From positions 24,428,001 to 24,492,000 of the forward strand of contig CAIIXF020000001.1 in the NCBI GenBank assembly GCA_903813345.2: a stretch of 64,000 nt of DNA. Reading direction: 5' to 3'. The DNA comes from Owenia fusiformis. Lineage: Eukaryota. A model generated the notes under the pieces. The model made no database searches. It saw only the letters and a list, made by a program, of their open reading frames with translations, and was not told where the DNA came from. The first letter of the stretch is position 1, and every line of letters starts with the position of its first letter. A program made the translations under genes and the position numbers. Shown one piece after another: positions 2,860 to 52,370 of the stretch.

Positions 2860-4200
2860 TATATTATATTATATAAATTATGTAATACTTTAAATGTTTA
2901 TTTTGAGTTGGATTGTCTAAGTTTTTTGTCCAAATTTCTTGAATACATTTCATCAGTATTTTGTAAAGCAACATTCTAAATTCTAATTTGCTGTTCATGC
3001 TTTGGTACCCCAGAAGTATATTTTTCCAAGTAATATCCACCTTTAGTGTTTCACTTAGAATATTCCATAGATTTTTAATTAGGCCTAACACACAATCATA
3101 TAATAAATGTCTTATGTCTTGTACAACATTACATTCACTACATTCTTTTGGTACATTCATATTCCACTTATTTACCAGTCTTCCACAGGCTAAGAAATTA
3201 TGTAATACTTTAAAGTTAAATTCTGATCACTTTTGGCATTCGATATCTTTTATCTTGTTTTTGTATATATTTCTAAAAGTGATTCTATCGTTCTGAATAT
3301 TGAACGATTTTGTCCAATCTGCTTCCATCCTTGGTCTAATAAATTTGTCTTTCAATAGGATTTCATAAAAGAACTTTGAACGTAATTTCTCAAGGTTTTC
3401 ATATTTATCATTTCTAAATACGTAGGAAAGAGTTTGAATGCATTTTGTTAACATTTTTCATACTTTGTTTACTCTCATATTTAATATTGTGCAAAGCAAG
3501 TCTAATTTTTAAATATTTGGTCATCCAATTTTGCTTATTCTAGTCTTAACTATTCTCTCGTCAAAAAGTCCTTGACATAAATAAAATCTGCATTTATCCA
3601 ATTTTTCGTGTATAAGATTTCTTTCCTATATAAAAACCGTTTGTTTAGCCATAAAACATCTGTTCCAGGATGTTTATTTTTCTTTATTTCTTTACATCTA
3701 TTGTATGCACAAAAGACATGTTTGTAGAACTTATAGTGATCTAAAATCTTAACATTTTCGTCAAAATTGGTTTTGTGAAAATCATTTATTGTAAAACCAA
3801 GCTTATTTATGATAAATTCTGGAATCATTTTAACCGGTGTGTTTGTTGTTTTTATACGAGGTGCCCATGCAGCTTTTAAAGCATCAATTTTACATTGAAT
3901 GTCTACCAGATTAATCCCACCATCAAATATATTTCCAATTAAAGTATTTCGTTTTACCCAATCCTTATTCCATAGAAAACCGAAAATAATTTTATTTATT
4001 CTTTTAACAATATCATCGGGTACATCTAGAATACTTAAATTGTACACTACTTTTGAAATTCCAAGAGTGTTAATAACATGTGCTTTCCATGATTCAAAAG
4101 GTTTTTCAAAGTTGTTAGTCTTGTTATCCCAGTTTTTTTCGTTGCACAAAGTTTTGTCATTTCCAATATATATTCCCAGACATTTAACAGGTTCTACTCC
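2860..4200 (-). mobile_element. Degenerate L1/Tx1-clade LINE, 3' part of ORF2
   Basis: Frameshifted pieces include PVKCLGIYIG (end of RT), INKIIFGFLWNKDWVKRNTLIGNIFDGGINLVDIQCKIDALKAAW, LWLNKRF and a zf-RVT-like CSECNVVQDIRHLLYDC (ORFs 3550-4149, 3227-3454, 2864-3160). Confidence 0.85.
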
Positions 4201-9266: not shown

Positions 9267-10415
9267 GCAAGATTTATTGAAAATTGTCAATTACGTTTCT
9301 ATCGCTCGCTCTAAATGATATTTTACTATTGCCCTTGTTTTCTAAATGTCGATGAAAGTTTCAATCCAATATGGGAAATACAGTGATCAAATCAGATTTT
9401 AGAATGCTGGAGAAGAAATGGGCACGGAAGCTACATTTTCTCTGCATGAATCTATCATATACCTGTGGTTCGACTTGACGTAATGGATGTTCTTATTTTT
9501 AGTATATGGAATCAGTTTAGATGTTTGTTTGATTTTTGCGGATGAAAGATATTGTGTAAAAACAGATTTTCAGAGAACCTTATTGTATTTTACTGATAAG
9601 ATTAACCAGGGCCTTCAACAGTATCCATTTGTGGTTTATAAGTGTTTTTGATTCGTTGAATGTTGGTGATCATGTATCTTAATTTGAAGTTGTTAACTTT
9701 TTTACTTTTGATAAGATCTATATACCCTTGTCTCAAAAAGGTGCATTGATACAGTGACCCGATTCGTCGCTTTATTTAATGGTTGAAATGCTGCGTTTCA
9801 ACGGTAAGTATCAAGAATAAGTTAGACCTAATAGAGAAATGTTCCTTTAGCACGAAAGCTTCGAATAGCTGATTTGATTTATTTGGTCTCTCAACCTCCC
9901 TGCTCTACTCAGATAACAAATTAAACTAAAGACAATACAATTCACTCAAATTTATAGTGAACTCATTCAAAATAGAAAAAATAATCAATATTTTGTCATT
10001 CTGACTGCTTTTTGTAAATACATGTTGGGTTAAGACTTCATATCAATTCGACAAATTGTCTTTTCCTGCAATTGTACAGTGGTATCACGCCAAGTGATAG
10101 GAAAATGAATGGAGGCGTTAGTAGCCGATTTCTGCTAGAAAATTCAGCAAGTTTGCAAGATTTATTTTTTCATGAGAAAGTTGACGAATAAATCGCTAAA
10201 TGAATAAGTGTATGGCATGGTGAAATCTTTTAGGTATCACTGTCCTGCTTCCCCAAGATATCAATTCTATATATCTCTGTTATGTACTTGAAAACTCACT
10301 TCTCATATGATAAATCATTTTATTGTCCAGAACTAATTTTGTTCCATGACAATACAACTAACAAAATACTCCCAAAATAAAATCAATCTAGATAAACAGG
10401 TTACGGGCGACATTA

Positions 10416-10904
10416 CCGGATTTTCTCGCATATAAGCCCTGGGCGTATAACTGAAAGAAGGGGTTATTTCGTCTGTTATTTTACCTCTTATTTTTCGCCC
10501 ATGGGCGTATGAGTGTACTACTTTCGATTTTTGGCCCAGCGGGCGTAAAGGTGAGAAGAGCTGATGAATACAATGGTTCCTCAAAGACTACCGTACCTAC
10601 TGTTGTAGTCCTACAGCATGTTTTGTAAGAATTATAAAGGAAATGTCACCTACAACCTTGGACTTATGTTGAAACAAAGTAACAACAGAACGATCCACCA
10701 CTGCCACTTACGGCACAGCGTTGAACTTAATGTTGAAACAAAGTAACGACAGAACGATCTGCCAGTGACAAAATACTCTTGAATTTATTGAAAAAAATCA
10801 ATAAATAGTCATTTTTTATAGGCCCATGGGCGTATAAGCGTACTACATTCGATTTTTGGCCCATGGGCCTAAATTTAGGGGGGCGTATATGCGAGAAAAT
10901 CCGG
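10416..10904. mobile_element. Tc1/mariner (pogo/Tigger-like) MITE, 489 bp
   Basis: 24-bp TIR CCGGATTTTCTCGCATATA(A/C)GCCC, flanked by TA at 10414-15 and 10905-06. Internal direct repeats: gcccatgggcgtat...ttcgatttttggccca twice and atgttgaaacaaagtaac...agaacgatc twice. Confidence 0.85.
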
Positions 10905-11547
10905 TATGCAGCAATTCATAGAAATGTGTGTTGCTATGATCGTACCCCATTGGAAATTTTGTCGCGAACTTCGAATTTCCCCTGTCACAAATTTTTGCTA
11001 ATTTTCCATAACATTTGGAACACTCCTAACACTCAAATTTTTTTGTTTGTCTTTGAACCTTTTATTTTAGAAAATACAATGGATTTAGAAAATATGTGTG
11101 ATTTTTCAATTTACTGCGAAAAAATAGCACAAAATTAAACATATTATTTTATTCAAGTCATCTAAACTTTATTCATTCAAATTCTCCAGGCATATGTTTA
11201 AATAAAGATTATCTTTGAGAGATTGTATTTTCATTTGCAACAACTTCATATTTAGCATGTGAATGTTGTTGTTGAATATAAGAGTTAAGATCTGCTTTTT
11301 ATCGTCGTTCAGGCCATTGAAAAACCTGTCTATTACGAACCTGACTGGTTCTGCAGATTCTGAACTTGGCAACATCACTCTTTAATACCATATTTATCAG
11401 TTTCAGTTGCATGATTTGCAATCTTGCAAATGCCTCTGTTGTAAGGTACCATTAAGTGCTCAAAGACTTCAAATGGCCAAGGACCAACAGTTGTGCGGCC
11501 ATAATCGTCCGTGGGTGAACAAGGCGGATACCGACTGATTACACTCT

Positions 11548-12837
11548 CACGGTGTATAACCCAAACGCTCCTACATGCACGACGGAGCGTTTCATTTACG
11601 CGGAAACGCTCCGGAGCGAAATAAAATGGCGGCTAATGAAGATTCCACTATGACCGTAAGTATTGTTTCTCTCGTCTCTCTTACATATCATATGTTATGG
11701 TGAAATATTATGTACCATTCGATGAACAATACCGTGAGCAAAGATCTTATTTATTCAACTTCTGGTGGTAAACTGTTATTTGCTTGATCAAAGCTCCGAA
11801 GTGTAGATCGAACGAATCTGAAGATGACGATCTGACCACAAATTACGAATTAAACTAGTATTTCTATGAAAACGTTAATCTTTCTGTGAAAGTAGTAGAT
11901 CACAAACTCGTATTCTCATTTCCTAAAATCCCAGTCCAAATCCATTACTTGTTCTCAAGAAATCGCTTGTTTTCCTCGAAACGCTCCGTCGATTTAGAAC
12001 ACAATTTTAGAAACGCTCTTACCATTTTGTTTTGATATCATTTTCAGATTATAAGAGAAGAGTTCCGAATCGAATCTATCTCTCAAAAACGTGTTGTACT
12101 TGTTAGGCAAATTGAAACATCTAAACCCGGTGGTGCTAAACGTGCAACTAGCTGATTTAAGCCTACATTAGATGATGTCATGCCTACATGTGTGCTAAAT
12201 CATAAAACTATAGAAAAAACGAAAATTTATATGTGAATTAATCTTTCTTCTTTTGATGCCAGGGGGGTATAATAGATCTTTTCTTTCTCTTCCTGAAAAG
12301 GAAAGGCAAGCTATATATTTCCTAAACTGATCTAGACTACCGGAGCGTTTCCAGTTCACTGTGTTAACCAGATCGGAGCGTTTCTTGAATATGAGAATGT
12401 CATCATTTTTAAGACTGGATTTTCGGTCATCAAATCACTATTACGATAATGCATGGTGCGTTGAAGCATTGGAATTTGACTAAAATATACGTTGGTGCTC
12501 TAATCTTGGCTCAACTAATCACATGTATCGACAAAAGGGGTTTTGACCGGTAGAATGACAAATACGTTTTTGGATTTTGATAACTATACTGCTTCGTACA
12601 GCTCTTCCTAATTGCTTCAAACGTCAACAGCCAGCCAAGTACAACATGAATATCACACCCATCGAATGGTATACTCGAAATATGTAACTCATACCTCTTA
12701 TTCCCATTATTGGGGAAATCGTCAGACGGCTCATCATTCCCGCCAGCCAGTTTTCCTACTCCGGAGCGTTTCTTTGTTTAATTTCAGTAATGAAACGCTC
12801 CGTCGTGCATGTAGGAGCGTTTGGGTTATACACCGTG
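11548..12837. mobile_element. Non-autonomous Transib/RAG-like transposon, 1290 bp
   Basis: Perfect 49-bp TIRs starting CACGGTG (11548-11596 and 12789-12837). 5-bp TSD ACTCT at 11543-11547 and 12838-12842. About ten AAACGCTCC/GGAGCGTTT motifs. Confidence 0.8.
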
Positions 12838-13334
12838 ACTCTGCTGGATGGCATTATTGAACAACTCTGCACGGTTAAGTAAGAGCAGGGAAACCCCCAG
12901 AGTTTTAGCGTTGGCAGACATATAACGTCTCTTGCGTACCACCTTCGTTTGCGCACATTCTCACCGGTTAGTTTTTGAATATAACACGTCGTTGTGATGT
13001 TTGAATTGATGTGAGCATATTCCTTACATCTTTCAATTTATTGATGTGAAACATCATTTTTTGAATCCGCCATTTTTGTTTGTCGATTTGGACCAACCAG
13101 GACGATGGGTCGTGTCGATACAGATCTACATTATAGACGTACGTCATCTTTAAACCCGTGGTTCCCCCCTCTTGGGTTAAGTATACATGAATGTCTATTA
13201 GGGAGTGGCATAATCACATTGATACAAGCATTTTCTAGTTCTTTTGTATTTCATTGTAGGGATAAGAGACCCCGAGCCAATCCTTTTACTCTCTTCATAC
13301 TTTTTAGAACTGTATTCCTGCATGTGCTGTGTAA

Positions 13335-13886
13335 CCCTACTATCACACCAAACTAGTTCTCACTACGTTCTCGAAAACGGGCTTCAACTGTGTACGAACG
13401 GACTGGACGTACTTAGAACCGGTTGGGGTATATTTACAAACTTCATAGAACGTACTCGAACGAGTAGGTCCTCTAGATTGACACCAAGCAAGTTGCCAAT
13501 ACGTTCTTCAAAACTGGTTTTAAACTGTGTGCGAACGGAATGAACGTAGCTACAATGTTCTACGGTCTGTTTACGCATGGACTTTCCCGGACAGGGAATG
13601 TGATTTAGAATTTTGAATCGATTCAAAATTCGATGGCGACCATGCCGTTCTGTAATCAGGTCATGATGACCTTCTAGACTAATGGACGCATTATACGACG
13701 TTGCACACTGACGTGGTGCGACCTGAACGAACTGCGAATGAGATGGACGTATTGAAGACTGTTTATGAACGAAGTAGCTAATTATTTTAGACATATTTCC
13801 CGGCCACAGCCAGATTGAGCCCGTTTTACGACGTTTTCGTAGGACTGGCAAGAACGGGTAAGAACTAGTTTGGTGTGATAGGGGGG
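13335..13886. mobile_element. PIF/Harbinger-type MITE, 552 bp
   Basis: 26-bp TIR CCC(TA/CC)CTATCACACCAAACTAGTTCT. TAA TSD at 13332-34 and 13887-89. CpG-rich interior. Confidence 0.8.
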
Positions 13887-16068
13887 TAACACACATTACC
13901 TGCAATTTGTTGCAATATTCCTCCATTTTTTCAAAAATTGAATATCAATACTGAAACTCTTTTGGTGATATTTAAAAAACAAATGAATTTGAGTGTTAGA
14001 AAAAGTCCAATGAACATGTGTTCTAAATTTCATGGAAAATGAATAGACATGAGTGACACTAGGGAATTTTGAAGTTCGCGACTACATTTCCTATGGGATA
14101 CATAAGTGATATGTCATTAAAGTCAAGTTACGGTACAACTACTTCAGTTTTTCTAGGCCTTACATTTATTTAAGTTGCAGCTATTGTAGCAGTTCCTTGT
14201 GGATATGATATAACATACTGTAGAATATGAATGTCACATTATATCGCACTCTCACCATGGGACATATGGTTTTAATAATGGCTATTTTTATAATGAATAA
14301 TTGATTATTTACATATTCGATATACTTAAAATAGCACCTTTCTGATGTGTTGCTTCACTCGAATAGTTGTGCTATATACATAGGTTTGATTACAAAATTA
14401 CCCCCCCCCCCGATCGGTATTTACCAATTGATTTACCTCAATGCTACTTACATGACTTATTGGAGTTATGTCAGGTTCTCAATGAATGTTAGTACTGTTA
14501 ATGAAATTAAGTATCAGTCATAACAACTGAAGGGTATTACTCTTGTGTACAGGGTAGTCCAATGATTGAGAAATAGTGAACTGAACAGAATGCAAAACTG
14601 ATATTAAAACTAAATCATTTAGAATAGACGCAAACGCAAATGAAGGAAGTGGTGGATATCTCTGTGGATTTTTAATCAATGAATTGGATATTTAACATGC
14701 AATATTTTCAATTTTGTTTTCCCTGTATTTTTCTAGTATTGTGGTATAAAATGGTATTATCAGTGAACACATGCAGAATATAGTACCATGTTTGAAACAC
14801 GAACGATGTCATCAGTCTTCATAATTATGAGACAAGGCATCTTCAAATTTATAAGGACAGATTTAAAACCTTGTCTGATCAATCACTTAGCTAAATGATT
14901 GATGAGGCCTGAATAATAAAAACATAGCAGCATGGGTGGGCAATGTAGCACAGAAGCATAACTGTATGAAACTAACTTGTGGTATTCCTGTTTTTCATAA
15001 CTCCTGTCTAATTTGTAGTAAGTTCCCCATGGCATAAGGTTGAAAAATCCACATAAAGTTGAAAAGTCTACATCTGCATAGTCTTTGCGGGTTATTGTTG
15101 TATGGACTGGGTTTATAGCATATGTATATACTAATAGACTTCTCATTCTCATTCAAATCACATGAGAGGAATTCGATTGACTAAATTGAATTCCTTTCCA
15201 GCGTTTCTACTTAGAAACCAATTCATCTCTTAATTTCATAACTTCTTACATCCTTCATGATGAAGAAGTATTAGTTAACGGGATAATGATGTATGATACA
15301 TGAACCTATTCAATATCCTGCATGATTCCAAGAGAAAATAAAATATTCCTGTTTTCTGACATTAAGATATCCAGATAGACACATGGATCTTAATTTCGTA
15401 TTTTTATATCAGTTTAATGTGATTCAATCTTCCCATGGGGCTACCTAATTTTTCATGAAAACTTTTCAGAAATGGTCAAACAAAAACAACCATGTAATGA
15501 GGTACCATATATTTTCATGATTAGTGTCTACTGTACTATTACTTTTATGTGTAGGCCTAATCCATAAAACTATTTACAATACGGGAATAATTTTGCGATA
15601 TAGTAACAAATAACAATTTGCTGGACAATTAGCAGTGACATTAAACATGAAAGAAACATGGTTTTAATAGTGGCAGTAGCCAGTCCTAGCAGATAACAAC
15701 ATTTCCATGTTACTTTAACGGAGCCTACGTTTATTGTCATTTTAGATGAAACGAATGCCTTTGAATTGAAATAATCCCATAATCTTTGCAGCTTTACTGC
15801 AGTTTATGTGTCTTTAATGATGTAGAAACAGTCATACGAATACTAATGCAGAGAACTATTCCTCTTAAATGTTTACAGCATTTTTTATGTCCAATAGGGC
15901 ATTCCACGAATGGTTATGGCTGTTCCGTTTTAAGTACTGTGCGAATGTACTCAAGTTTGGATTGGCACAATTATATTTTATTATATTTTTGCCTGTAAAA
16001 TATTACCCTTGTGAATATAACAAGTGACATGTTCACCCCAGGTTAAGACTTAAGCACAGGTTAATTAA

Positions 16069-25423: not shown

Positions 25424-25432
25424 GATTAGATA

Positions 25433-26296
25433 CACTCCCCTCCATAAGTTTGGCAACCTTTTTTCCCCCATTGAACTACGTGTTAAAGCCTCTTTACCTT
25501 TGAATTTTTATTTACTTAACTTGCGATGAAAATACTTATACTATTGATGGAAACGTAATTTGACTTTAATTCCAATACCTCCAAATTTTCTCAATTTTTT
25601 TCCTCAACTACAATAGGTCGAAAATTGATGATGAATTTTTGAAAATCAACATTCCCATGTTAACCAATGGGAAATGGTAGGTTTGCCGCAAGTCATGACA
25701 GAATATCCATCCATCCGAGTCCTTGCAAAAAATACGAGTTAGGCAGGCAATTGAATTTGCTAACTCTATTTAACAAAAAATTGATGTGTTTCTTCAGGTT
25801 CAACAAAGTTATAGGGCTTTAAAGTCAAAATTGTTTTTCAAAAAACCTCTCCCATTGAAATAACACAAGAGGCGAAAAATTATTTTCAAACATGAGTTTG
25901 AAGCTCTGTAACGTTAATATTCATCAAATAAACTAAACACTTAGTGTTAAAAAAGTTAGACAATTCAATTTTCTATATCAAAATATTTTTTGCTGAATCT
26001 TTTACTGAAAAGATATCCTGATTTCTGATTTGCCCCGAACCCTCCATTTCACATTGGATTACATGGGAATGACGATTTTCAAAAATTCATCAAATTTATC
26101 ACCAATTGTCGACCTATTGTAATTGAGGAAAAAAATTGAGAAAATTTGGAGGTATTGGAAATAAAGTCAAGTTACGTTTTCATCAATATTATAAGTTATT
26201 TCATCGCCGATTAAGTGAATAAAAATTCAAACGTAAAGAGGCTTTAACACGTAGTTCAATCGGGAAAAAAGGTTGCCAAACTTATGGAGGGGAGTG
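25433..26296. mobile_element. Tc1/mariner-type long-TIR MITE, 864 bp
   Basis: TA-CACTCCCCTCCATAAGTTTGGCAACC...GGTTGCCAAACTTATGGAGGGGAGTG-TA. Arms pair over more than 200 bp. Confidence 0.9.
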
Positions 26297-26860
26297 TAGT
26301 TTAAAGTCTTGCCAAGAGCATGCACATGAAATTAAACATGAAATACTGCTTTGTATTCATCGGACAAATCTTTTAAAACCTACATCACAAGTTTTGCTTC
26401 AAACATGACAACGTACAGCTAAAGTGTACCACCGTATATTTTGTCAATGTACGTCGTCCATGGTTAGGCGTTTAAAAATACTTGAATACAAAACAAAATA
26501 CAAGTGACCAAAAATAGAAGTTTTTGACATTTGAGTTTTACTGCAACATCAATTTTCCCTTCTCATTAATTAGACCAGCTCATCGAAGCTGACACTCTCT
26601 TCAGATGGCCTTTTGAAACCTTTGGAGGTATTATGTCATTTTGTTTGACCAAGGTCTCGTTTATTCAGTTAATAAACAGGACATACATTTTGTTAAAAGC
26701 TATAACATAATACATCATTCTGAGATTATATTTTTTATATTGCATGACATGTTAATCCCTTGGTATCGGATCGTTGACGTTGTTGTTAGATTACCCTACT
26801 GAATTATAGATTTTGGTTTTCATTGGATTCATGTAGCGTGATATGACATTAAATCTCCTA

Positions 26861-28017
26861 CAGGGTGGGCCAAAAAACGCCACTTTTTTTCAAAATGCTA
26901 TAGCTTTTTTAATATTTGATACAAAATCATAATTTGCAGATCAAATGAAACTTGAGGTTGTTATCTATCCATTGATCATGAATTGAACACTTTTACTTGA
27001 ATAGAATATGTCACCAGCGTCTCACTTAAACATGTGGTGTGCCATGAGAAAGAAGCATAATTTGAAAAATGTTTCTGAACTGATACGGCCTGATGATCGC
27101 CAAGCTAATAGTCCTGATGCAAACCCCAGTGAGGGTATGGGAAGGTCTCCAGGAGATTGTATGAAGGCACCCAATCTAGAAAATTGCTCAACTAAAGCTG
27201 ACAATTAAGACAGGTTGAAAAAAACTTAGCTAACATTTCATTGATACTGCTATATCAGCAAGGCGAATAAAACTAAAATATATTTTTATTTTATTTATTT
27301 TAATTTTATTATAGTGTCATGAGTTAAAATACAATTCCATATATAAAACAATAGTACACTGTTAAAATCACCCCAGGCCCCCTATGGGCCTATAAGACAT
27401 TAGACATTAGACATTAAACACTGAAATTTACTCTCTTCATCTAAATTCATGAAACCAGTTACAATAGTAGAAACGTTTGCATACAATTCTAAACGGATGT
27501 CTTCATAACGAGAACAGTTCAAAATTACATGTTTTTCATTTTCAACTGCATTATAACATAAAGGGCACACCCTTTCATCAACTGGCAGCCTTTCATAACG
27601 ACCAGTTTCTATTCTGATTGGTGCTACACCACATCTTATAGAAGCAAATGACTTTCTTTGAGAAATAGAAAGCGTTGATGTAACATATCTTTCTGTTTTT
27701 ATGTCATGTTTATAGGTTCTAAAAGTTCTGAGTTTGTTTCATTGACCTTGTTGCCGCTTTGTATCGTCCCAGAGTCTTGTTTGCCAGTTGTTCTGCACTT
27801 GACGTTCCAGCGGTGACACAATCGCCGACACCGGGTCGGTATCATCAAATAGGGTGGCGAACCATTTGAACTCCTCTTTTAAATCAAATAGAAACCAAGT
27901 TGAAGGACTAGTTACATTATGTTATTACTAAGAACCCCTGGCACTATATAACTGCAAAATTTGGGGTATGTAGGTTGGAAAATAAAAAATTTGTAGTGTC
28001 TTTTTTGGCCCAACTTG
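26861..28017 (+). mobile_element. Internally deleted Tc1/mariner element with a transposase C-terminal remnant
   Basis: TA-CAGGGTGGGCCAAAAAA...TTTTTTGGCCCAACTTG-TA. ORF 27008-27208 contains ANSPDANPSE, matching the WPxNSPDLNPxE/D motif. Confidence 0.75.
27278..27810 (-). mobile_element. Non-LTR retrotransposon 3' fragment (RTE-X-like) nested in the Tc1 element
   Basis: Minus-strand frame KLRTFRTYKHDIKTERYV...IRCGVAPIRIETGRYERLPVDERVCPLCYNAVENEKHVILNCSRYEDIR, followed by an A-rich tail at ~27310-27278. Confidence 0.8.
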
Positions 28018-29779
28018 TATATGGACTTATCTTAGTTATGGACCCCGCCATGCCACCTTCCAATTGCTTCAGTCTAAGAGTGTGCTATCCGTAACTCTCT
28101 AGGACACTATAACGTCATATTTAAATTACAAAATAGTGATCTATCACTATAAAATTATATTACAATATTACACAAAACTTGGAAATGTTCTTGGAATACT
28201 ATTTTGAGCGGTTTAAGCTGCCACCTTTTCCCTGAGGCTACGAACGCAAATTAGACGAGCCTTATAAAATTAATGTACATTCGGATCAAAATTGAGACAA
28301 AAAGTTCAATAGGCCTATCTCTGGGTTCAGTTGTCATGGATTGATGTATTATGGCTTGTTAGAAAGGTCTTCTTACATATTTTATGGATATATCAGAATA
28401 TCAAATATATTCAAGTTCACTAGATTCTGATACAGCATTTTGATTGTGTGGGGCTGTATCCATGGTGACATTTTACTCACTCAGAAATGCGTTAAACCCC
28501 AAACTTAGTTACTCTTAAGCACTCATAATGTTTCAGAGGGTTCAAAGGAATATTTTGACAAAGGTTTCATTGATGTACTCGAGATGTCATGTAAAACTAA
28601 TTTTAGGGGCATTTCAAAAAGCGCCCCTTGGTGGTAGCCCCAAATTTGTCACTTAAGAGTATACACATATAATGCCCAGAATAACTGGGAAACATGTGAT
28701 CATAACGGTGAACGGTGAAATATTTGGGATTATTTTCTGCGGATGGATGAGCTTGATAGTGGTGAATTGGTCAATGTACATAAATATGATGACGTTTTAG
28801 TAATCCAACTATGCAAGAGAGCAGAACTTTTGATTTTCGTGGGTTTTTGTTGAATTTTTTTGACACGAATGTGAGATGTTTTGCTGATGTTTTGCTCTGA
28901 AATTCTTTGAAAATCGATAAGCTGCAATTTGAGAAATTCTAATTTGAACTTTGTCAATTTTAACATGCATCTCAATGGTACAAAAAGTAAGGAGAGTTCT
29001 ACCTAACTTTGGTCACCGAAATTTGATATCAGATCTTTACCTCTTTTTTATAAAACCCTGATAACCCGGATTTAAAAAAATCAGCCTAAAATTTGACAAA
29101 ATTTAGGTTTGAAAGTATGACTCGGGATCCCAATTCATGGATTATTAAAGGGTCGGATTGATCATTGCCTTATAATGGAAGAAAACACGTTCTGTATATT
29201 CTAAACTACCCTCGTGTCACTAACATCACTTAGGATAAGATAGGTCGTTTTCAAAGTAGACTTAGACGACAATGTGGGAAATATGTTGATGGTTTGATTC
29301 TCAATTTCACAGAATCCTAATCTCCTTCATTTGTATATACTTTTTGTATATACTGTATTGACCTTAAAGATACAATGCCACCCTGGTCAGCAAAGCATCA
29401 CAGTCCCAGATATAACTGTCCATAAGCATTTATTTTTTGCGTTTGATTCACGAAGTATGAATTAGCAAGAAAATAGCATTCGTTAGCGCTATGAAAAATA
29501 GAACATATACTTACATAACTGCATTTAGATTCAGGTGTTATCACGATTGGGGTTTTAGAAAGGCGCTTTTACAAACCACACCTGTCAAGTAAAAAATTGG
29601 GGGTTGTTTGAAAAAATCGGGGTTCATCTTCTAAAAAATCGGAAACATCGTGGTTTCCAAACTACAATTTGAGAAAACCGACTAAGCACATATTATATGT
29701 CAATGCCATCATACAGAGGGGACGAACAAAATGGACACCGTGAATTTCATAATTGTGAGTACGTCCCAGAAGACATATA

Positions 29780-30804
29780 CACGCCCGGTGATCGTACAAA
29801 ATGGATGGAGGGGGGGGATTAGGCGATTTCTGCAAGAAAACTCAACAAACTTGGAAGATTTATTTTTTCAAGAGAAAATTTACAACTGAATTGCCAAATG
29901 AATAGGCGCAGTGCATGGCAAAATATGTTAGGTCATCTAGTATTTTTTTGCACTGATACGCTTCAAAGATATGAGATCTATTAAAAAAGGCGCATCATCA
30001 CCAACGTGCAAAAGTCAATGTTTTTGCTATAAATCGGGCCACAATGGTCTACACAACCTGTAATAAATAGGTTAAAGGGGCATTATTATCACAATACTAA
30101 TGATATTGCTCACTTTTTAAAGTTAGTTTCCATGCGTTATACAAAAAATAATCGAAATAAATTAATTTTGGATGGAGGGGGGGGGAGTGGATGGAGGGGG
30201 GGATTAATATGTCTTTACGATGGAACAAATTCACAAGAACTCGGGTATTTGAAAAAACTAAACTCAGTACCCCAGTAAGAAACTGGATATTATATCTCTG
30301 GAGAAAGAAAAATGGGAAAATTTGGAGTCATAAGAATAAATTCAAGTAGCATGTCTTATCATGTCTTACATACACGTGATCCCCCCTCCATCCAATCCCC
30401 CCCTCCATCCAATATTAATTTATTTCGATTATTTTTTGTATAACGCATGGAAACTAACTTTAAAAAGTGAGCAATGTCATAAGTATTGTGATAATAACGT
30501 CCCTTATACCTATTTATTACAGGTCGTGTAGACCATTGATGCCCGATTTATAGCAAAAACATTGACTTTTGCACGTTGATGATGATGCGCCTTTTTTAAT
30601 AGATCTCATATCTTAGAAGGGTATCAGTTCAAAAAAAATACTAGATGACCTAACATATGTTGCCATGCACTGCGCCTATTCATTTGGCAATTCAGTTGTA
30701 AATTTTCTCTTGAAAAAATAAATCTTCCAAATGTGTTGGAGTTTTCTTGCAGAAATCGCCTAATCCCCCCCCCCTCCATCCATTTTGTACGATCACCGGG
30801 CGTG
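29780..30804. mobile_element. Foldback MITE with ~425-bp TIRs and TA TSD, 1025 bp
   Basis: TA-CACGCCCGGTGATCGTACAAAATGGATGGAGGGG...CCCTCCATCCATTTTGTACGATCACCGGGCGTG-TA. Arms are ~29780-30204 and ~30379-30804. Confidence 0.9.
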
Positions 30805-31432
30805 TATACCCTCCACATATTGTAGAACAGAAACAGAAGCTCTAATATTTTTATATTTTCTGATTTAATCTACAGCTGTTTGCATGATACCTGGATAGCA
30901 TACGGTTATACATGCAGGCTAAAACTTCCCTTATAACCTACTGTAGCAACAAACATTACAAAAGCCGTTTTGAATGGGAATGTCAGTTCTCCATGCTATA
31001 GATGGATCCTGAAAATAAAATGCAAATAAAATAGAGAATTCAAAGGAAGACAATTTTGAATAAATAGCAGCATAGACAAAAGCACTCTACCTGAAATCGT
31101 TCATCCTCATTACATTTCTACAATCAATAAAAACACCAAGTGGAATCTGCTGTATTATTCGTTAATGTTTGCTGAATTATATTTTTGGGGCATCTTCAAT
31201 TGTTACTTCACATTTGCATTTCCGTATCTCTCCTTCATCATATTTGGCCTGATATTCACGTATATTGACAGCTCTCTGGCTTAACGTTAACAAATCCAAA
31301 GTTTTTTCATTCTCTAAAATTGACTGCATCAGGTTCACATAAGGGGTGTAAACTTGAATCTATCGCAACTAGTGGGATTTATTATTGAGGATGATACTTG
31401 ACAGCCCTGAATCAAGACGATAAGTCAATTAA

Positions 31433-36065: not shown

Positions 36066-36945
36066 CCCATGCAGACAGATCGCCTAAAATTACATTCGTA
36101 TGATGTGAGAATCGACATTCACCAGGAAAGTAGAAACATTTTGTCATGATGCACATTAATTTTTTACTGTTTAATAAATGTTGAATGACAGTCATATAAA
36201 ATTCTATTAGTATGAGAATAGCATACCGTCTTGATATTTCAAGGTAACTCGTTCGAAAAATGATGACGGTGATTGAAATGACGATGTAAAGATAAAACCG
36301 CAACGAAATATTTGTAGATTTCTTTGAAAAACTAATATACATATCTGAGAATATACATCTCATATTGAATTTTTCAAAAACATAAAAACATGTATAAATA
36401 GTAAGGCATGTAGGTCCGATTCCCTCTGGTAGCATTAACATTTGTGTCGTATAAGTCATACAATTAATCTTTGAAACCAGACTTTTATTCAAACTTATGA
36501 TCGGATATAGGTATGATGTGTACTTCAATGTAATATTAATAAAGTAACATCATACTTATGTCCAATCATAAGTTCAGATGATAGTTGTTTTTCAAATATT
36601 AATTGTATGACATATATGAGACCAATGTTAATGCTACCAGGGGAAATCTGAACTGCAGGCCTTACATTTTTCTTACCTTTTCAAAGAAATCTACAAATAG
36701 TTCATTACGGTTTTATATTTACATCGTAATGTCGATCACCGCCATCACCTTTCGAGCGAGTTACCTTGAAATATCAATACGCCATGCTTATCTCATTCTT
36801 ATAGAACTCAATGTAACTGTCCTTTACCATTTATTAAGCAGTAAAAAATAATTTGCTTCATGGGTGACAAAATGTTTCTACTTTCCTGGTGAATGTCGAG
36901 TCTCGCATCATACGAATGTAATTTTAGGCGATCTGTCTTCATTGG
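36066..36945. mobile_element. Near-complete foldback element, ~880 bp
   Basis: agacagatcgcctaaaattacattcgtatgatg... pairs with ...catcatacgaatgtaattttaggcgatctgtct. Pairing continues inward to a ~25-nt loop near 36520-36545. TSD unclear. Confidence 0.85.
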
Positions 36946-39776
36946 ATGTATTGGTCTCTGTTCAATAAACTCATTGATCAGCTTCAATACGAACAGTTCT
37001 CACTTAGTAAAAAGGTCGTCTTTTTCTGAAATTGGATGTTCATTTAAGATCAACATTAATCTCTTATTTGTGAAGGTTGAGTTCATTTTATTTATTTTTA
37101 CGAACAATGCGAAACATTTCACTGCATAAATAAGAGTTATAATAAACCCAGAATATCTTGAGTCAAATTTTACCATATTTCAAAAACTTGCAGTAACATT
37201 TAGTGATGTCTTCTTTATAATATGGGGTTTGCTTTCATGGTTTTATTGGACACTTGGCAAAGTAATAATGGTTTGTGATAGTCTGAATTATGAGATCATA
37301 GATTAATAATAAAATGAAATATCTCTGAAAGGATGTTATTTCAACCCACTTTTGGGTATTGCCTGGTTTCTATGAATCAGCAGTGTTATTGTTTCCATCA
37401 ACATGATCCGAGAAGCACGCACAGGAACATAATTAGTATGATTACATCCCTCTGTTTGAAAACTGAACCTGTTTCACTAGAAACTTCTTCATTGTGAATG
37501 TTGATTTGGGATCATTATATTGAATTGGAGATATGGAATCTGGGAAATGTGTCATATTGCATACAAATAGTTGGCATACAGACACTTTTAAATTGAGATC
37601 AAGATTTGTATTTATAATGCCAATAATAATGCGCTTAATAGCAAAAAACCAAGTTGCAATACTATAATTACGAGATATATTGCGTCTTATAAAACTGTTC
37701 GGTACATCCACTCATCATTCAAATACTGTTTAAAATCAAAGTTTATGACCGCTGTCTCGAACCCTGCTATTACAATAATTGATAGACCTTTGTTTAAAGC
37801 CTATATTACTCCCAATAGGTAAAATTTACATAAAGTGAATATATGCAATTCTGTCTCGACCAAATTGATTTTCAAGTCTGGCAATAGCATGTGAAGATTA
37901 TGTAAGTCTGTAATTTTATTATGATATAAAGGAAGAATACTTTAATTATGTTCGGTCATTGTACCAGAGAATGAGGTTTCTGAGTGCTTAATGAGAAAAT
38001 CTAGGTAAGTATTGGACTTGTGTACTTGTGCACACAAAGCTTTAAGACTAAATATTACATATTCAATTATACATAAGTGCGTGTGACATACAATTTTGCC
38101 TGCAGTGTGTTTTGGTTTATAAACCCTAATGGCTGCAGATTGGGGGGAGGTTAAATCCGTTATTTTTCTAGCTTCAGCCACAGGCAGACAGGTGAATTAC
38201 ACTTTTTGGCGTAAAAATCAAGGTGATTGGGAGTTGAGGGGTCAAGTTATGATTATGAGTCGAAAATTGATGCCAATAAAAAGAAATTCATAAAATATTG
38301 ATAGTGACCTTGTTTCTATAACTGTAGAAAATGCAAAGTGATCATGTTTGCTCTTTTTGATATATAGATAATCATAAGCACATTGAATTCACTTTCCAAC
38401 ATGCTTTATTTTATTACAATCGAGCCACTTCAAAGACCTGTTGGTTATAATACAATGTTTTCTTAAATGTCATACTCGCTCATACAAAACATACATTTCT
38501 GTTATTTTCTGTTAGCATGATTTATTTTGGTTTTGTCAGAGATAACAGCCTCGATTTATCATCTCCACGGGCATCAACTCACATTCTATTTTATTAGGTC
38601 CCTAGGATTGTTGATTAACTTCGGTATGGGTAAAGTAAGAAATGTGTTCTGGTTTTAGAGAAAACAGGATGTACATTGAATGGATAAATGTAAGCATGAC
38701 CTGAGTAAATGATGATTCTTTGACACTTTGGTTAATTTACAGATTCGCTTGGTATGAAAAGATAAGCCATACTATTTCTATGTGTGCAATTGTTTATATA
38801 AATAAATTACCAGGTACCGTGCAGCTATTTTATTTAGACCTCTAATGAACTTTGGTAGATATTATGGATGCAATCTGTGAAGTGTTCACCTTTTCAGAAT
38901 TGTACATACATTTATCCGTGGATGTTTATTTTGCATGTATTCATTTTCTAAGTTCCTTCATGTAGTTTGTTGCGCTATTTAAAGACCAGTAGATGGAAGG
39001 GTAACTTTGCATGCTAAATAAAATATACTAGTCTTTGAAAGATAACTAAACCTTGGTTAGTTTTAATTGGCATCCATAGCAGCGGAGTGAAAGGCATAGA
39101 AATATACGCTCCCGACTGTGCTACTGCATCAGTTGCCAGTAACCCTGCATGTGTATGTGGGATTATCAGGAATTATTGGACGCACTACCTATCGCCATAT
39201 AATAGCCTATTACTTACCAGTGTAGCAAGAGAGATGCCTGAAAAGCTCAACCGAGACAATGATTTGTAGTGAAGAAGATTGAAAACGTTTCTGTGGAAAG
39301 TGGAAAATGATGAGAATATTGAAGACATTATTGTGTTTTTTATGTAGAGTGTGTGTCTAGAAAGTAATTTCTTATTCAAGGAAGTAAAACAAACATTCGC
39401 GAGGCTTATTCTGCTTGAAAGGATACTTTGTTAATGAGTCTGGCCTGAAGTGAACAAAGTAGTCGAACAAGACATAACGAAAGCGAGACATCGGTTGGTA
39501 TTATCAAATAGGATGTTGTTAACTATTTGAAATAGTATCTGCATACATATAACAATTAAAGACATAACAAGAAATCAGGTAAATATGCACATATATGTTT
39601 TCTCATTGAAGAAATATTTTGATTAAAGTGCTAATGGCTATTGGTTACACTTCATTTATTCCTATTTGACTGTGGGTTGTATTGGCTTATTCAAAGTTAT
39701 TTGGGTCTATTGAGTATCAAGTATTGTTCATTGTACTTTGTCATTGAAAAGTTGGATACGTTGTTAATGGTATTTC

Positions 39777-45947: not shown

Positions 45948-46369
45948 CTCTAAGTACTCACCTATTTACGCTGACGACACGTCAGCGTAACAAGATAGAA
46001 GAATTTCCGGGTTTCGTTTTTGGTAAGATCTTTGTATTTCTCGATTCTACACCACTTACAAGTTGTTGACAATAATTTGGCTCAAAGTTAAAGAAGATAG
46101 TCTAGTTTGAGAATATGCATGCGGTTCTATGTTTGGTATATTAACGAAGACGCAGTTCACATATATAGTCCATCGCTCTTGTTACGTTGACGATCTTCGT
46201 CAATATTGCCAATGTGACAATGTTAACAGATTCTCAAATAGAGCACGATTTTTTTCTAGGTAATTCCAACAATGTCCATGTGAACATTTTCCAACCGGTT
46301 AATTTTCTAGGTGAAATTGCCTAGAAAAAATTCGAGCACTGCTCGAGAATCTATTAACGTGATTAGATA

Positions 46370-47233
46370 CACTCCCCTCCATAAGTTTGGCAACCTTTTT
46401 TCCCCCATTGAACTACGTGTTAAAGCCTCTTTACCTTTGAATTTTTATTTACTTAACTTGCGATGAAAATACTTATACTATTGATGGAAACGTAATTTGA
46501 CTTTAATTCCAATACCTCCAAATTTTCTCAATTTTTTTCCTCAACTACAATAGGTCGAAAATTGATGATGAATTTTTGAAAATCAACATTCCCATGTTAA
46601 CCAATGGGAAATGGTAGGTTTGCCGCAAGTCATGACAGAATATCCATCCATCCGAGTCCTTGCAAAAAATACGAGTTAGGCAGGCAATTGAATTTGCTAA
46701 CTCTATTTAACAAAAAATTGATGTGTTTCTTCAGGTTCAACAAAGTTATAGGGCTTTAAAGTCAAAATTGTTTTTCAAAAAACCTCTCCCATTGAAATAA
46801 CACAAGAGGCGAAAAATTATTTTCAAACATGAGTTTGAAGCTCTGTAACGTTAATATTCATCAAATAAACTAAACACTTAGTGTTAAAAAAGTTAGACAA
46901 TTCAATTTTCTATATCAAAATATTTTTTGCTGAATCTTTTACTGAAAAGATATCCTGATTTCTGATTTGCCCCGAACCCTCCATTTCACATTGGATTACA
47001 TGGGAATGACGATTTTCAAAAATTCATCAAATTTATCACCAATTGTCGACCTATTGTAATTGAGGAAAAAAATTGAGAAAATTTGGAGGTATTGGAAATA
47101 AAGTCAAGTTACGTTTTCATCAATATTATAAGTTATTTCATCGCCGATTAAGTGAATAAAAATTCAAACGTAAAGAGGCTTTAACACGTAGTTCAATCGG
47201 GAAAAAAGGTTGCCAAACTTATGGAGGGGAGTG
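46370..47233. mobile_element. Tc1/mariner-type long-TIR MITE (duplicate of 25433-26296)
   Basis: Same TIRs and TA TSD. Confidence 0.9.
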
Positions 47234-47797
47234 TAGTTTAAAGTCTTGCCAAGAGCATGCACATGAAATTAAACATGAAATACTGCTTTGTATTCATCGG
47301 ACAAATCTTTTAAAACCTACATCACAAGTTTTGCTTCAAACATGACAACGTACAGCTAAAGTGTACCACCGTATATTTTGTCAATGTACGTCGTCCATGG
47401 TTAGGCGTTTAAAAATACTTGAATACAAAACAAAATACAAGTGACCAAAAATAGAAGTTTTTGACATTTGAGTTTTACTGCAACATCAATTTTCCCTTCT
47501 CATTAATTAGACCAGCTCATCGAAGCTGACACTCTCTTCAGATGGCCTTTTGAAACCTTTGGAGGTATTATGTCATTTTGTTTGACCAAGGTCTCGTTTA
47601 TTCAGTTAATAAACAGGACATACATTTTGTTAAAAGCTATAACATAATACATCATTCTGAGATTATATTTTTTATATTGCATGACATGTTAATCCCTTGG
47701 TATCGGATCGTTGACGTTGTTGTTAGATTACCCTACTGAATTATAGATTTTGGTTTTCATTGGATTCATGTAGCGTGATATGACATTAAATCTCCTA

Positions 47798-48954
47798 CAG
47801 GGTGGGCCAAAAAACGCCACTTTTTTTCAAAATGCTATAGCTTTTTTAATATTTGATACAAAATCATAATTTGCAGATCAAATGAAACTTGAGGTTGTTA
47901 TCTATCCATTGATCATGAATTGAACACTTTTACTTGAATAGAATATGTCACCAGCGTCTCACTTAAACATGTGGTGTGCCATGAGAAAGAAGCATAATTT
48001 GAAAAATGTTTCTGAACTGATACGGCCTGATGATCGCCAAGCTAATAGTCCTGATGCAAACCCCAGTGAGGGTATGGGAAGGTCTCCAGGAGATTGTATG
48101 AAGGCACCCAATCTAGAAAATTGCTCAACTAAAGCTGACAATTAAGACAGGTTGAAAAAAACTTAGCTAACATTTCATTGATACTGCTATATCAGCAAGG
48201 CGAATAAAACTAAAATATATTTTTATTTTATTTATTTTAATTTTATTATAGTGTCATGAGTTAAAATACAATTCCATATATAAAACAATAGTACACTGTT
48301 AAAATCACCCCAGGCCCCCTATGGGCCTATAAGACATTAGACATTAGACATTAAACACTGAAATTTACTCTCTTCATCTAAATTCATGAAACCAGTTACA
48401 ATAGTAGAAACGTTTGCATACAATTCTAAACGGATGTCTTCATAACGAGAACAGTTCAAAATTACATGTTTTTCATTTTCAACTGCATTATAACATAAAG
48501 GGCACACCCTTTCATCAACTGGCAGCCTTTCATAACGACCAGTTTCTATTCTGATTGGTGCTACACCACATCTTATAGAAGCAAATGACTTTCTTTGAGA
48601 AATAGAAAGCGTTGATGTAACATATCTTTCTGTTTTTATGTCATGTTTATAGGTTCTAAAAGTTCTGAGTTTGTTTCATTGACCTTGTTGCCGCTTTGTA
48701 TCGTCCCAGAGTCTTGTTTGCCAGTTGTTCTGCACTTGACGTTCCAGCGGTGACACAATCGCCGACACCGGGTCGGTATCATCAAATAGGGTGGCGAACC
48801 ATTTGAACTCCTCTTTTAAATCAAATAGAAACCAAGTTGAAGGACTAGTTACATTATGTTATTACTAAGAACCCCTGGCACTATATAACTGCAAAATTTG
48901 GGGTATGTAGGTTGGAAAATAAAAAATTTGTAGTGTCTTTTTTGGCCCAACTTG
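47798..48954 (+). mobile_element. Deleted Tc1/mariner element with nested RTE-X-like fragment at ~48215-48747 (duplicate of 26861-28017)
   Basis: Copy within the tandem duplication. Confidence 0.75.
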
Positions 48955-50716
48955 TATATGGACTTATCTTAGTTATGGACCCCGCCATGCCACCTTCCAA
49001 TTGCTTCAGTCTAAGAGTGTGCTATCCGTAACTCTCTAGGACACTATAACGTCATATTTAAATTACAAAATAGTGATCTATCACTATAAAATTATATTAC
49101 AATATTACACAAAACTTGGAAATGTTCTTGGAATACTATTTTGAGCGGTTTAAGCTGCCACCTTTTCCCTGAGGCTACGAACGCAAATTAGACGAGCCTT
49201 ATAAAATTAATGTACATTCGGATCAAAATTGAGACAAAAAGTTCAATAGGCCTATCTCTGGGTTCAGTTGTCATGGATTGATGTATTATGGCTTGTTAGA
49301 AAGGTCTTCTTACATATTTTATGGATATATCAGAATATCAAATATATTCAAGTTCACTAGATTCTGATACAGCATTTTGATTGTGTGGGGCTGTATCCAT
49401 GGTGACATTTTACTCACTCAGAAATGCGTTAAACCCCAAACTTAGTTACTCTTAAGCACTCATAATGTTTCAGAGGGTTCAAAGGAATATTTTGACAAAG
49501 GTTTCATTGATGTACTCGAGATGTCATGTAAAACTAATTTTAGGGGCATTTCAAAAAGCGCCCCTTGGTGGTAGCCCCAAATTTGTCACTTAAGAGTATA
49601 CACATATAATGCCCAGAATAACTGGGAAACATGTGATCATAACGGTGAACGGTGAAATATTTGGGATTATTTTCTGCGGATGGATGAGCTTGATAGTGGT
49701 GAATTGGTCAATGTACATAAATATGATGACGTTTTAGTAATCCAACTATGCAAGAGAGCAGAACTTTTGATTTTCGTGGGTTTTTGTTGAATTTTTTTGA
49801 CACGAATGTGAGATGTTTTGCTGATGTTTTGCTCTGAAATTCTTTGAAAATCGATAAGCTGCAATTTGAGAAATTCTAATTTGAACTTTGTCAATTTTAA
49901 CATGCATCTCAATGGTACAAAAAGTAAGGAGAGTTCTACCTAACTTTGGTCACCGAAATTTGATATCAGATCTTTACCTCTTTTTTATAAAACCCTGATA
50001 ACCCGGATTTAAAAAAATCAGCCTAAAATTTGACAAAATTTAGGTTTGAAAGTATGACTCGGGATCCCAATTCATGGATTATTAAAGGGTCGGATTGATC
50101 ATTGCCTTATAATGGAAGAAAACACGTTCTGTATATTCTAAACTACCCTCGTGTCACTAACATCACTTAGGATAAGATAGGTCGTTTTCAAAGTAGACTT
50201 AGACGACAATGTGGGAAATATGTTGATGGTTTGATTCTCAATTTCACAGAATCCTAATCTCCTTCATTTGTATATACTTTTTGTATATACTGTATTGACC
50301 TTAAAGATACAATGCCACCCTGGTCAGCAAAGCATCACAGTCCCAGATATAACTGTCCATAAGCATTTATTTTTTGCGTTTGATTCACGAAGTATGAATT
50401 AGCAAGAAAATAGCATTCGTTAGCGCTATGAAAAATAGAACATATACTTACATAACTGCATTTAGATTCAGGTGTTATCACGATTGGGGTTTTAGAAAGG
50501 CGCTTTTACAAACCACACCTGTCAAGTAAAAAATTGGGGGTTGTTTGAAAAAATCGGGGTTCATCTTCTAAAAAATCGGAAACATCGTGGTTTCCAAACT
50601 ACAATTTGAGAAAACCGACTAAGCACATATTATATGTCAATGCCATCATACAGAGGGGACGAACAAAATGGACACCGTGAATTTCATAATTGTGAGTACG
50701 TCCCAGAAGACATATA

Positions 50717-51742
50717 CACGCCCGGTGATCGTACAAAATGGATGGAGGGGGGGGATTAGGCGATTTCTGCAAGAAAACTCAACAAACTTGGAAGATTTAT
50801 TTTTTCAAGAGAAAATTTACAACTGAATTGCCAAATGAATAGGCGCAGTGCATGGCAAAATATGTTAGGTCATCTAGTATTTTTTTGCACTGATACGCTT
50901 CAAAGATATGAGATCTATTAAAAAAGGCGCATCATCACCAACGTGCAAAAGTCAATGTTTTTGCTATAAATCGGGCCACAATGGTCTACACAACCTGTAA
51001 TAAATAGGTTAAAGGGGCATTATTATCACAATACTAATGATATTGCTCACTTTTTAAAGTTAGTTTCCATGCGTTATACAAAAAATAATCGAAATAAATT
51101 AATTTTGGATGGAGGGGGGGGGGAGTGGATGGAGGGGGGGATTAATATGTCTTTACGATGGAACAAATTCACAAGAACTCGGGTATTTGAAAAAACTAAA
51201 CTCAGTACCCCAGTAAGAAACTGGATATTATATCTCTGGAGAAAGAAAAATGGGAAAATTTGGAGTCATAAGAATAAATTCAAGTAGCATGTCTTATCAT
51301 GTCTTACATACACGTGATCCCCCCTCCATCCAATCCCCCCCTCCATCCAATATTAATTTATTTCGATTATTTTTTGTATAACGCATGGAAACTAACTTTA
51401 AAAAGTGAGCAATGTCATAAGTATTGTGATAATAACGTCCCTTATACCTATTTATTACAGGTCGTGTAGACCATTGATGCCCGATTTATAGCAAAAACAT
51501 TGACTTTTGCACGTTGATGATGATGCGCCTTTTTTAATAGATCTCATATCTTAGAAGGGTATCAGTTCAAAAAAAATACTAGATGACCTAACATATGTTG
51601 CCATGCACTGCGCCTATTCATTTGGCAATTCAGTTGTAAATTTTCTCTTGAAAAAATAAATCTTCCAAATGTGTTGGAGTTTTCTTGCAGAAATCGCCTA
51701 ATCCCCCCCCCCTCCATCCATTTTGTACGATCACCGGGCGTG
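50717..51742. mobile_element. Foldback MITE (duplicate of 29780-30804)
   Basis: Same TIRs and TA TSD. One G-run is 1 nt longer. Confidence 0.9.
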
Positions 51743-52370
51743 TATACCCTCCACATATTGTAGAACAGAAACAGAAGCTCTAATATTTTTATATTTTCTG
51801 ATTTAATCTACAGCTGTTTGCATGATACCTGGATAGCATACGGTTATACATGCAGGCTAAAACTTCCCTTATAACCTACTGTAGCAACAAACATTACAAA
51901 AGCCGTTTTGAATGGGAATGTCAGTTCTGCATGCTATAGATGGATCCTGAAAATAAAATGCAAATAAAATAGAGAATTCAAAGGAAGACAATTTTGAATA
52001 AATAGCAGCATAGACAAAAGCACTCTACCTGAAATCGTTCATCCTCATTACATTTCTACAATCAATAAAAACACCAAGTGGAATCTGCTGTATTATTCGT
52101 TAATGTTTGCTGAATTATATTTTTGGGGCATCTTCAATTGTTACTTCACATTTGCATTTCCGTATCTCTCCTTCATCATATTTGGCCTGATATTCACGTA
52201 TATTGACAGCTCTCTGGCTTAACGTTAACAAATCCAAAGTTTTTTCATTCTCTAAAATTGACTGCATCAGGTTCACATAAGGGGTGTAAACTTGAATCTA
52301 TCGCAACTAGTGGGATTTATTATTGAGGATGATACTTGACAGCCCTGAATCAAGACGATAAGTCAATTAA

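Follow-up and report, generated by a model that had tools for sequence, protein, structure and literature searches.

A probable non-autonomous Transib-type transposon with repeated motifs at its ends in Owenia fusiformis

Which transposon lineage gave rise to a ~1.3-kb element with CAC...GTG ends in the genome of Owenia fusiformis, and does the unequal spacing of motifs at its two ends amount to a pairing rule like that of the 12/23 recombination signal sequences (RSSs)? Both questions are raised by a stretch of 64,000 nucleotides (assembly GCA_903813345.2, contig CAIIXF020000001.1, positions 24,428,001 to 24,492,000 of the forward strand), which is called the window below and in which all positions are counted. 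The features of the element are collected in Table 1. We consider it likely that it is a young non-autonomous cut-and-paste transposon, similar to a miniature inverted-repeat transposable element (MITE), of the Transib/RAG1-like branch of the CMCT (CACTA-Mirage-Chapaev-Transib) clade. The branch is taken here in a broad sense, which includes the small share of probability that we leave to RAG-like elements; within it, a plain Transib is more probable than a ProtoRAG-type element with RAG1L and RAG2L genes.

Ends, scar and age of the insertion

The two terminal inverted repeats (TIRs) are complementary at 49 of 49 positions, and each consists, from the outer edge inwards, of the heptamer CACGGTG, 8 nt, the 9-mer AAACGCTCC, 12 nt, its inverted copy GGAGCGTTT and CATT. 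A repeat finder returned the TIR pair as 50 nt, with one extra T/A, and it is only with the 49-nt boundaries that direct repeats abut the TIRs. The target-site duplication (TSD) is then exactly 5 bp long, and the flanks mismatch if the boundaries are shifted to 3, 4 or 6 bp. An earlier note on this DNA had described perfect 49-bp TIRs of this layout, a 5-bp TSD of ACTCT and a heptamer one base off the V(D)J heptamer CACAGTG, and all of this is borne out: the exact 5-mer stands at both ends, and the heptamer, which has the form CACNGTG, matches the RSS heptamer CACAGTG at 6/7 positions and CACAATG at 5/7. In the 64-kb window, the terminal 24-nt word (with up to 3 mismatches) occurs at the two ends only, and 100 shuffles gave 0 matches. 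Moreover, a generic scan for CAC...GTG pairs, allowing at most 2 mismatches in the 14 terminal nt and requiring identical flanking 5-mers and spans of 80–6000 bp, returned one pair in the whole window, which is the present element. A degenerate pattern of the TIR had 0 matches in bacterial and archaeal genome contigs, which says nothing on the host genome. The left end can be folded as single-stranded DNA into a hairpin of -17.2 kcal/mol (z -4.2); this carries no weight, because it merely restates the internal palindrome of the TIR.

The earlier note had taken the element to be non-autonomous, and it has no coding capacity of its own. The longest open reading frame (ORF) that overlaps it is 93 aa long and runs into the flank, while the longest one lying wholly inside has 88 aa. 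Searches in Pfam gave no match for the five element-overlapping frames (85, 79, 88 and 93 aa and one more) and no transposase or RAG1 family among the 22 window ORFs scanned, and neither the 88-aa nor the 79-aa internal frame had a match in the PDB (E up to 10). A convergent RAG1L-RAG2L gene pair is likewise missing from the element and from the window ORFs scanned, although a non-autonomous derivative could lack it. The partner transposase that the note had placed elsewhere in the genome is thus supported, since none lies within the window. Because the TIRs are perfect, the TSD abuts them and no ORF is present, the element is taken to be a non-autonomous cut-and-paste transposon.

No change was found at 108 TIR and TSD sites. 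If the source is assumed to have had perfect TIRs, such a result has a probability of 0.34 for a divergence of 1% and of 0.04 for one of 3%, which implies that the insertion would have diverged by less than about 3% since its arrival. It is young relative to the older inverted-repeat unit that hosts it (arms ~79% identical), because the 108 sites are unchanged. The element had been called recently mobile; it is probably young, whereas its mobility is plausible and nothing firmer. As for the insertion site, the 35-bp target has a GC content of 0.43 versus 0.34 in the window and falls in the top 19% of window 35-mers. The direction agrees with the published target preference of Transib, and the difference, at this single site, is mild and not significant.

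Table 1. Positions of the element's features and of the unit that hosts it
Feature	Positions	Strand	Remarks
Older inverted-repeat unit hosting the insertion	10943..14101		Arms ~105-125 bp, ~79% identical
Left TSD ACTCT, 5 bp	11543..11547		Identical 5-mer directly adjoining the TIR
Left TIR, 49 bp	11548..11596	+	Heptamer CACGGTG 11548-11554; AAACGCTCC 11563-11571; inverted copy GGAGCGTTT 11584-11592
Subterminal 14-bp box GAAACGCTCCGGAG, third motif copy	11603..11616	+	6 bp inside the left TIR
ATG and 10 codons, then GTAAGT	11626..11661	+	Read from the sequence; 10 residues, too short for a homology test
Internal motif pair	11978..12019	+	11978-11987 exact; 12010-12019 has 8/9 of the 9-mer; centres 32 bp apart
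Internal motif pair	12342..12384	-	12342-12351 and 12375-12384; centres 33 bp apart
Internal terminus-like word CACTGTGTTAACC	12357..12369	+	Edit distance 2 from the terminal 14-mer; GGAGCGTTTC 5 nt later
Subterminal 14-bp box GAAACGCTCCGGAG, third motif copy	12759..12772	-	16 bp inside the right TIR
Right TIR, 49 bp	12789..12837	-	Perfect complement of the left TIR
Right TSD ACTCT	12838..12842		Identical 5-mer directly adjoining the TIR

Assignment among transposon lineages

The element is assigned to the Transib type because its CAC...GTG ends and 5-bp TSD fit the published end criteria. In the literature, Transib is described with 5-bp TSDs and a CACAATG-type heptamer in which CAC is invariant (PMC1131882), HzTransib with TSDs that are always 5 bp long and TIRs that are like the RSS heptamer and unlike the nonamer (PMC4840297), and CMC with TSDs of 2-4 bp versus the canonical 5 bp of Transib (bioRxiv 10.64898/2026.08.26.747230). 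In Repbase (PMC4455052), non-autonomous elements are classed by their termini and TSD. The earlier statement that CAC-initiated TIRs together with 5-bp TSDs characterise Transib and RAG-like transposons therefore agrees with the published diagnostics.

Non-autonomous Transibs (Transib-N of insects and sea urchin; Hopper/Kodama of Drosophila) share with the present element the CAC...GTG ends with a CACNNTG-type heptamer, the exact 5-bp TSD, the lack of a transposase ORF and a size of ~1 kb. Unlike them, the present element is without an A-rich nonamer 12 or 23 bp from the heptamer, its 49-bp TIRs contain an internal 9+12+9 palindrome, and it carries ten copies of a GC-rich 8-10-mer, two pairs of which lie deep inside. 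HzTransib from Helicoverpa zea, which has been characterised biochemically and structurally, is similar in its 5-bp TSDs and, by description, in having TIRs that are like the RSS heptamer and unlike the nonamer; its end may also carry the same heptamer as the present element. The differences are that HzTransib is autonomous, with 3.5 kb and a transposase ORF, and that its TIRs are described as symmetric.

Several points weigh against the assignment to the Transib type. The 64-kb window holds the element once, which leaves a single copy with a single TSD as evidence. Neither the element nor the window contains a transposase, and the defining protein is unseen. An A-rich nonamer-like block was not found 12 or 23 bp past the heptamer, where TIR positions 20-28 and 31-39 read GCTCCTACA and CACGACGGA and are not A-rich; such a nonamer is not universal in Transib, however, since HzTransib has little or no nonamer similarity. 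In a 2026 preprint (bioRxiv 10.64898/2026.08.26.747230), it is warned that transposase phylogeny should outrank the ends, and one Transib lineage is described with TSDs of 5, 3 or 2 bp and variable TIR starts. Furthermore, the TIR was not found in a curated library of bivalve transposable elements (PMC10294476; files 1-12, 24 and 25; first 400 characters per sequence), and a search through 9 files (1.47 M characters) of RAG-like locus data supplementing PMC7204232 gave neither the TIR nor the terminal-context motif, with incidental internal matches only.

Other points count against the Transib-type assignment by favouring a rival, in which the element is a non-autonomous member of CMC (Chapaev-like), or of another CMCT lineage with 5-bp TSDs, that depends on a Chapaev/EnSpm-type transposase; we regard this as unlikely. 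Many-copy subterminal motif arrays typify CACTA/En-Spm more than the described Transibs, and arrays with copies in both orientations, as here, are reminiscent of En/Spm ends. The consensus of CMC_M.nervosa_3, a CMC-Chapaev-3 element of the mussel Megalonaias nervosa, begins CACCGTGTAAC and has 8 of its first 9 bases in common with the TIR (start CACCGTGTA versus CACGGTGTA in the present element). The heptamer is thus not specific to the Transib lineage, and with a CMC consensus that starts CACCGTG, the assignment rests on one 5-bp TSD. In addition, CMC is present in every genome of the largest mollusc survey, in which Transib accounts for only 1 of 14,275 DDE/D transposase ORFs (PMC10294476). 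By the passages seen of PMC12730594, CA..TG termini and TSDs of 2-5 bp are common to the CMCT clade, and the preprint cited above (bioRxiv 10.64898/2026.08.26.747230, in part) describes labile TSD lengths in a related lineage. On the other side, the ends do have the CA..TG termini of CMC, but the 5-bp TSD falls outside its range of 2-4 bp, and the literature passages at hand mention no CMC family with a 5-bp TSD. Moreover, the likeness to the Chapaev-3 consensus stops after 9 bases, with no similarity beyond, and AAACGCTCC does not occur in the first 400 nt of that consensus.

It is rather improbable, in our view, that the element descends, as a non-autonomous form, from a RAG-like transposon of the ProtoRAG type with RAG1L and RAG2L, a group known in bivalves. 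The RAG-like transposons (RAGL-B, RAGL-A and ProtoRAG of molluscs, amphioxus and acorn worm) resemble it in the CAC start, the 5-bp TSD and, in some cases, asymmetric ends; oysters and a mussel, as described in parts of PMC7204232, carry such CAC-ended elements with 5-bp TSDs and few non-autonomous copies. The 8-mer ACCCAAAC at TIR positions 12-19 (11559-11566 and 12819-12826) is shared with AanRAGL, a pelagophyte RAG-like transposon, where it forms part of a 13-bp terminal element (PMC9435367). The match may be a coincidence, and we leave this lead unweighted. The CAAAC within this 8-mer is also part of the protostome RAG-like consensus CACTWMCAAACKTYKBB (PMC7204232, in part), but the CAAAC-like word lies 8 bp further from the end than in the consensus. 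Only CAC is in register with the consensus: positions 4-7 are GGTG and not TWMC, and positions 8-10 are TAT and not AAA. The element has no RAG1L or RAG2L gene, and its asymmetry lies at a third site outside the TIR, not in the spacer between the heptamer and the second element. RAG-like elements are, by the same passages (PMC7204232), low in copy number and seldom spawn MITEs, and the failure of the TIR and the terminal-context motif to match in the RAG-like locus supplements counts against this origin as well. Because the TIR does not follow the protostome consensus after CAC, a ProtoRAG-type partner, which the earlier note had considered, is less likely than a plain Transib one.

A hAT5-type element, that is a hAT with 5-bp TSDs (PMC12730594, in part), hardly comes into question, since hAT ends always have G at the third base, according to the legend of figure S7 of PMC1131882, and the present ends have C there (CAC).

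Motif copies and the spacing of the ends

An 8-10-mer specific to the element, (G)AAACGCTC(C), recurs ten times, with three copies at each end of this probable Transib-type transposon and two internal pairs. All 10 window matches of AAACGCTC fall within the element (1.0 expected, shuffle maximum 5), as do all 7 matches of GAAACGCTCC (0.01 expected). The two copies inside each TIR form the 9+12+9 palindrome, with their centres 21 bp apart, and the third copy is found past the TIR, another 20 bp inwards at the left end and another 30 bp inwards at the right end. This third copy is the 14-bp box of Table 1, which on the left is embedded in a 12-bp perfect palindrome CGCTCCGGAGCG (11607-11618). 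The internal pairs lie ~430-490 bp from the respective element ends. The earlier note had given the distance from the inner TIR edge to the box as 6 bp on the left and 16 bp on the right, and had reported further copies near 11979, 12011, 12342 and 12376. The coordinates confirm both statements, with the qualification that the copy at 12010-12019 reaches only 8/9, whereas the interpretation of the repeated 9-mer as an RSS-type nonamer fails, as the 9-mer is not A-rich and stands at neither 12 nor 23 bp from the heptamer.

The five independent spacings between motif copies (21, 20, 30, 32 and 33 bp) are all near multiples of ~10.5 bp, with a Monte-Carlo p of ~0.03. The phase test at 10.5 bp was post hoc, with n=5, and the helical phasing of the copies is suggestive only. 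As a mechanism, we propose that a transposase encoded elsewhere would bind and pair both ends, would cleave at the CAC boundary through nicking and hairpin formation, as published for both Transib and RAG (PMC4840297), and would integrate with a 5-bp stagger, which would give the duplication of ACTCT. The (G)AAACGCTCC copies, which occur as inverted pairs and abutted half-sites, would probably serve as accessory binding sites for the transposase or its DNA-binding domain, and copies that are about two or three helical turns apart would keep the bound protein on the same side of the double helix.

The two ends, beyond the 49-bp TIR, are diverged yet alignable, and the 6/16 difference appears in the alignment as one 10-bp gap; the 6-bp and 16-bp spacers have no sequence in common. 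The distance from the heptamer to the first motif is 8 bp at the left and right ends alike. When the two halves of the element were aligned, the score was 173.5, compared with 125.7 for shuffles (sd 12.7, maximum 164, 100 shuffles). The signal between the halves comes mostly from motif islands, and we attach hardly any weight to a whole-element palindrome. Most simply, the placement at 6 versus 16 bp is a 10-bp indel that keeps the helical phase, and not a demonstrated pairing rule of the 12/23 type.

The alternative is that 6/16 is a functional, selected asymmetry, which makes the ends non-equivalent and imposes a 12/23-like pairing rule, and this seems to us improbable. The difference is exactly 10 bp, in keeping with the near-10.5-bp multiples of all motif spacings, and length-asymmetric ends have precedents. 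Those of ProtoRAG (27/31) are functional by the passages seen of PMC8289069, PflRAGL-A has a 10-bp end asymmetry, the ends of AanRAGL are 4/13 and all subgroup I Transibs are length-asymmetric (PMC9435367), and several Transib families have such ends according to parts of PMC1131882. Since end-length asymmetry has already been described for Transib and RAG-like elements, 6/16 would not be new in kind; most Transib families are described as having symmetric TIRs. Against a functional asymmetry, one copy cannot show that 6/16 is conserved, and the difference sits outside the perfect TIR, while the spacing from the heptamer to the first motif is 8/8. Furthermore, the unrelated spacers differ by one indel in a zone that is already diverged, and the phasing statistic has the post hoc nature and small number given above.

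The likeness to the 12/23 RSS itself consists of a heptamer one central base off CACAGTG and of ends that differ by about one helical turn. In contrast to the RSS, the second element is not a nonamer of the ACAAAAACC type, the first motif stands at the same distance from the heptamer at both ends, with at least 3 copies per end, and nothing ties the present element to antigen-receptor genes. Of the earlier proposal of phased, asymmetric and 12/23-like ends, the measurement of 6 and 16 bp is right, but the two values differ by one indel of 10 bp, which lies outside the perfect TIR and is seen in one copy.

Interior, surroundings and significance

The interior of the element holds two further features. 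The word CACTGTGTTAACC is the sole extra match in the window to the terminal 14-mer at an edit distance of up to 2, for which the chance expectation is 0.69 per 64 kb and ~0.014 per 1.29 kb. It resembles an additional, degenerate left end from which the first motif arm is missing, and it may stem from aberrant transposition, go back to an old relative nested in the element or be an alternative end. The run of an ATG, 10 codons and GTAAGT close to the left end may be what is left of an autonomous ancestor's first exon with its splice donor, which we mention as a lead only.

The unit into which the element inserted begins with CCCCATTGG directly after a TA and ends with CCTATGGGA directly before a TA, and by these ends it resembles a non-autonomous element of the Tc1/mariner type. 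When the insertion and one TSD copy are removed in silico, the 39-aa and 55-aa frames in the flanks (11378-11542 and 12844-12960, minus strand) fuse into a frame of 96 aa. For the 55-aa flank piece there was no word-sharing relative, and its one HMMER match in 1.84 billion representatives, to 7 stretches of a fibronectin-III repeat protein of 1,486 aa with 29% identity, was judged spurious. The 96-aa junction frame is not shown to be coding, because it has no credible homologue.

The window as a whole has ~34% GC and is dominated by repeats, and it contains no RNA families or tRNAs. Further inverted-repeat or foldback elements are located at 10414-10906, 25431-26298, 29776-30808 and 61411-62411, with duplicates at 46368-47235 and 50713-51746. 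They start with C after a TA and end with G before a TA, with arms of up to 430 bp and 88-94% identity, and are probably TA-targeting MITEs. Another inverted-repeat pair, of ~266 bp and 86% identity, is found at 36069-36330 and 36678-36948, and again at 57005-57266 and 57614-57878. A head-to-tail duplication of ~20.94 kb extends over 17488-38429 and 38427-59365, with 99.88% identity and a 3-base overlap at the joint; a segmental duplication of very recent date and an artefact of the assembly are the two possible explanations. Moreover, frames for LTR-retrotransposon gag and aspartyl protease occur at 885-2734 and 2864-4200 (both on the minus strand), with Pfam scores below the gathering cut-offs; all 5 significant matches of the gag frame are Mytilus proteins, with 39-44% identity. 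Fragments of the reverse-transcriptase C-terminus of a long interspersed nuclear element (LINE) lie at 27400-27738 and 48337-48675 (minus strand) and are also below the Pfam gathering cut-offs.

We think it highly unlikely that the element was produced recently by a Transib/RAG-like lineage, undescribed and still active, whose transposase reads multi-site phased ends and in which 6/16 makes the two ends functionally distinct. If true, this would mean an independent invertebrate pairing rule of the 12/23 kind, derived from three GC-rich sites per end and not from a heptamer and an A-rich nonamer. The element is best filed as a new member of the Transib-type family with an interesting end architecture, but so far nothing sets it apart in kind. 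The lineage is already known to have asymmetric ends, 5-bp TSDs and RSS-like heptamers, so that the finding extends the catalogue and opens no new question. The Transib group is the source of RAG1, the antibody-gene recombinase. If the family assignment holds, the element marks a recently active Transib-type transposase in the host genome, its 49-bp TIR is a ready probe for the autonomous partner, and the phased arrangement of several sites per end would be one more observation on the recognition of element ends by RAG1-like transposases.

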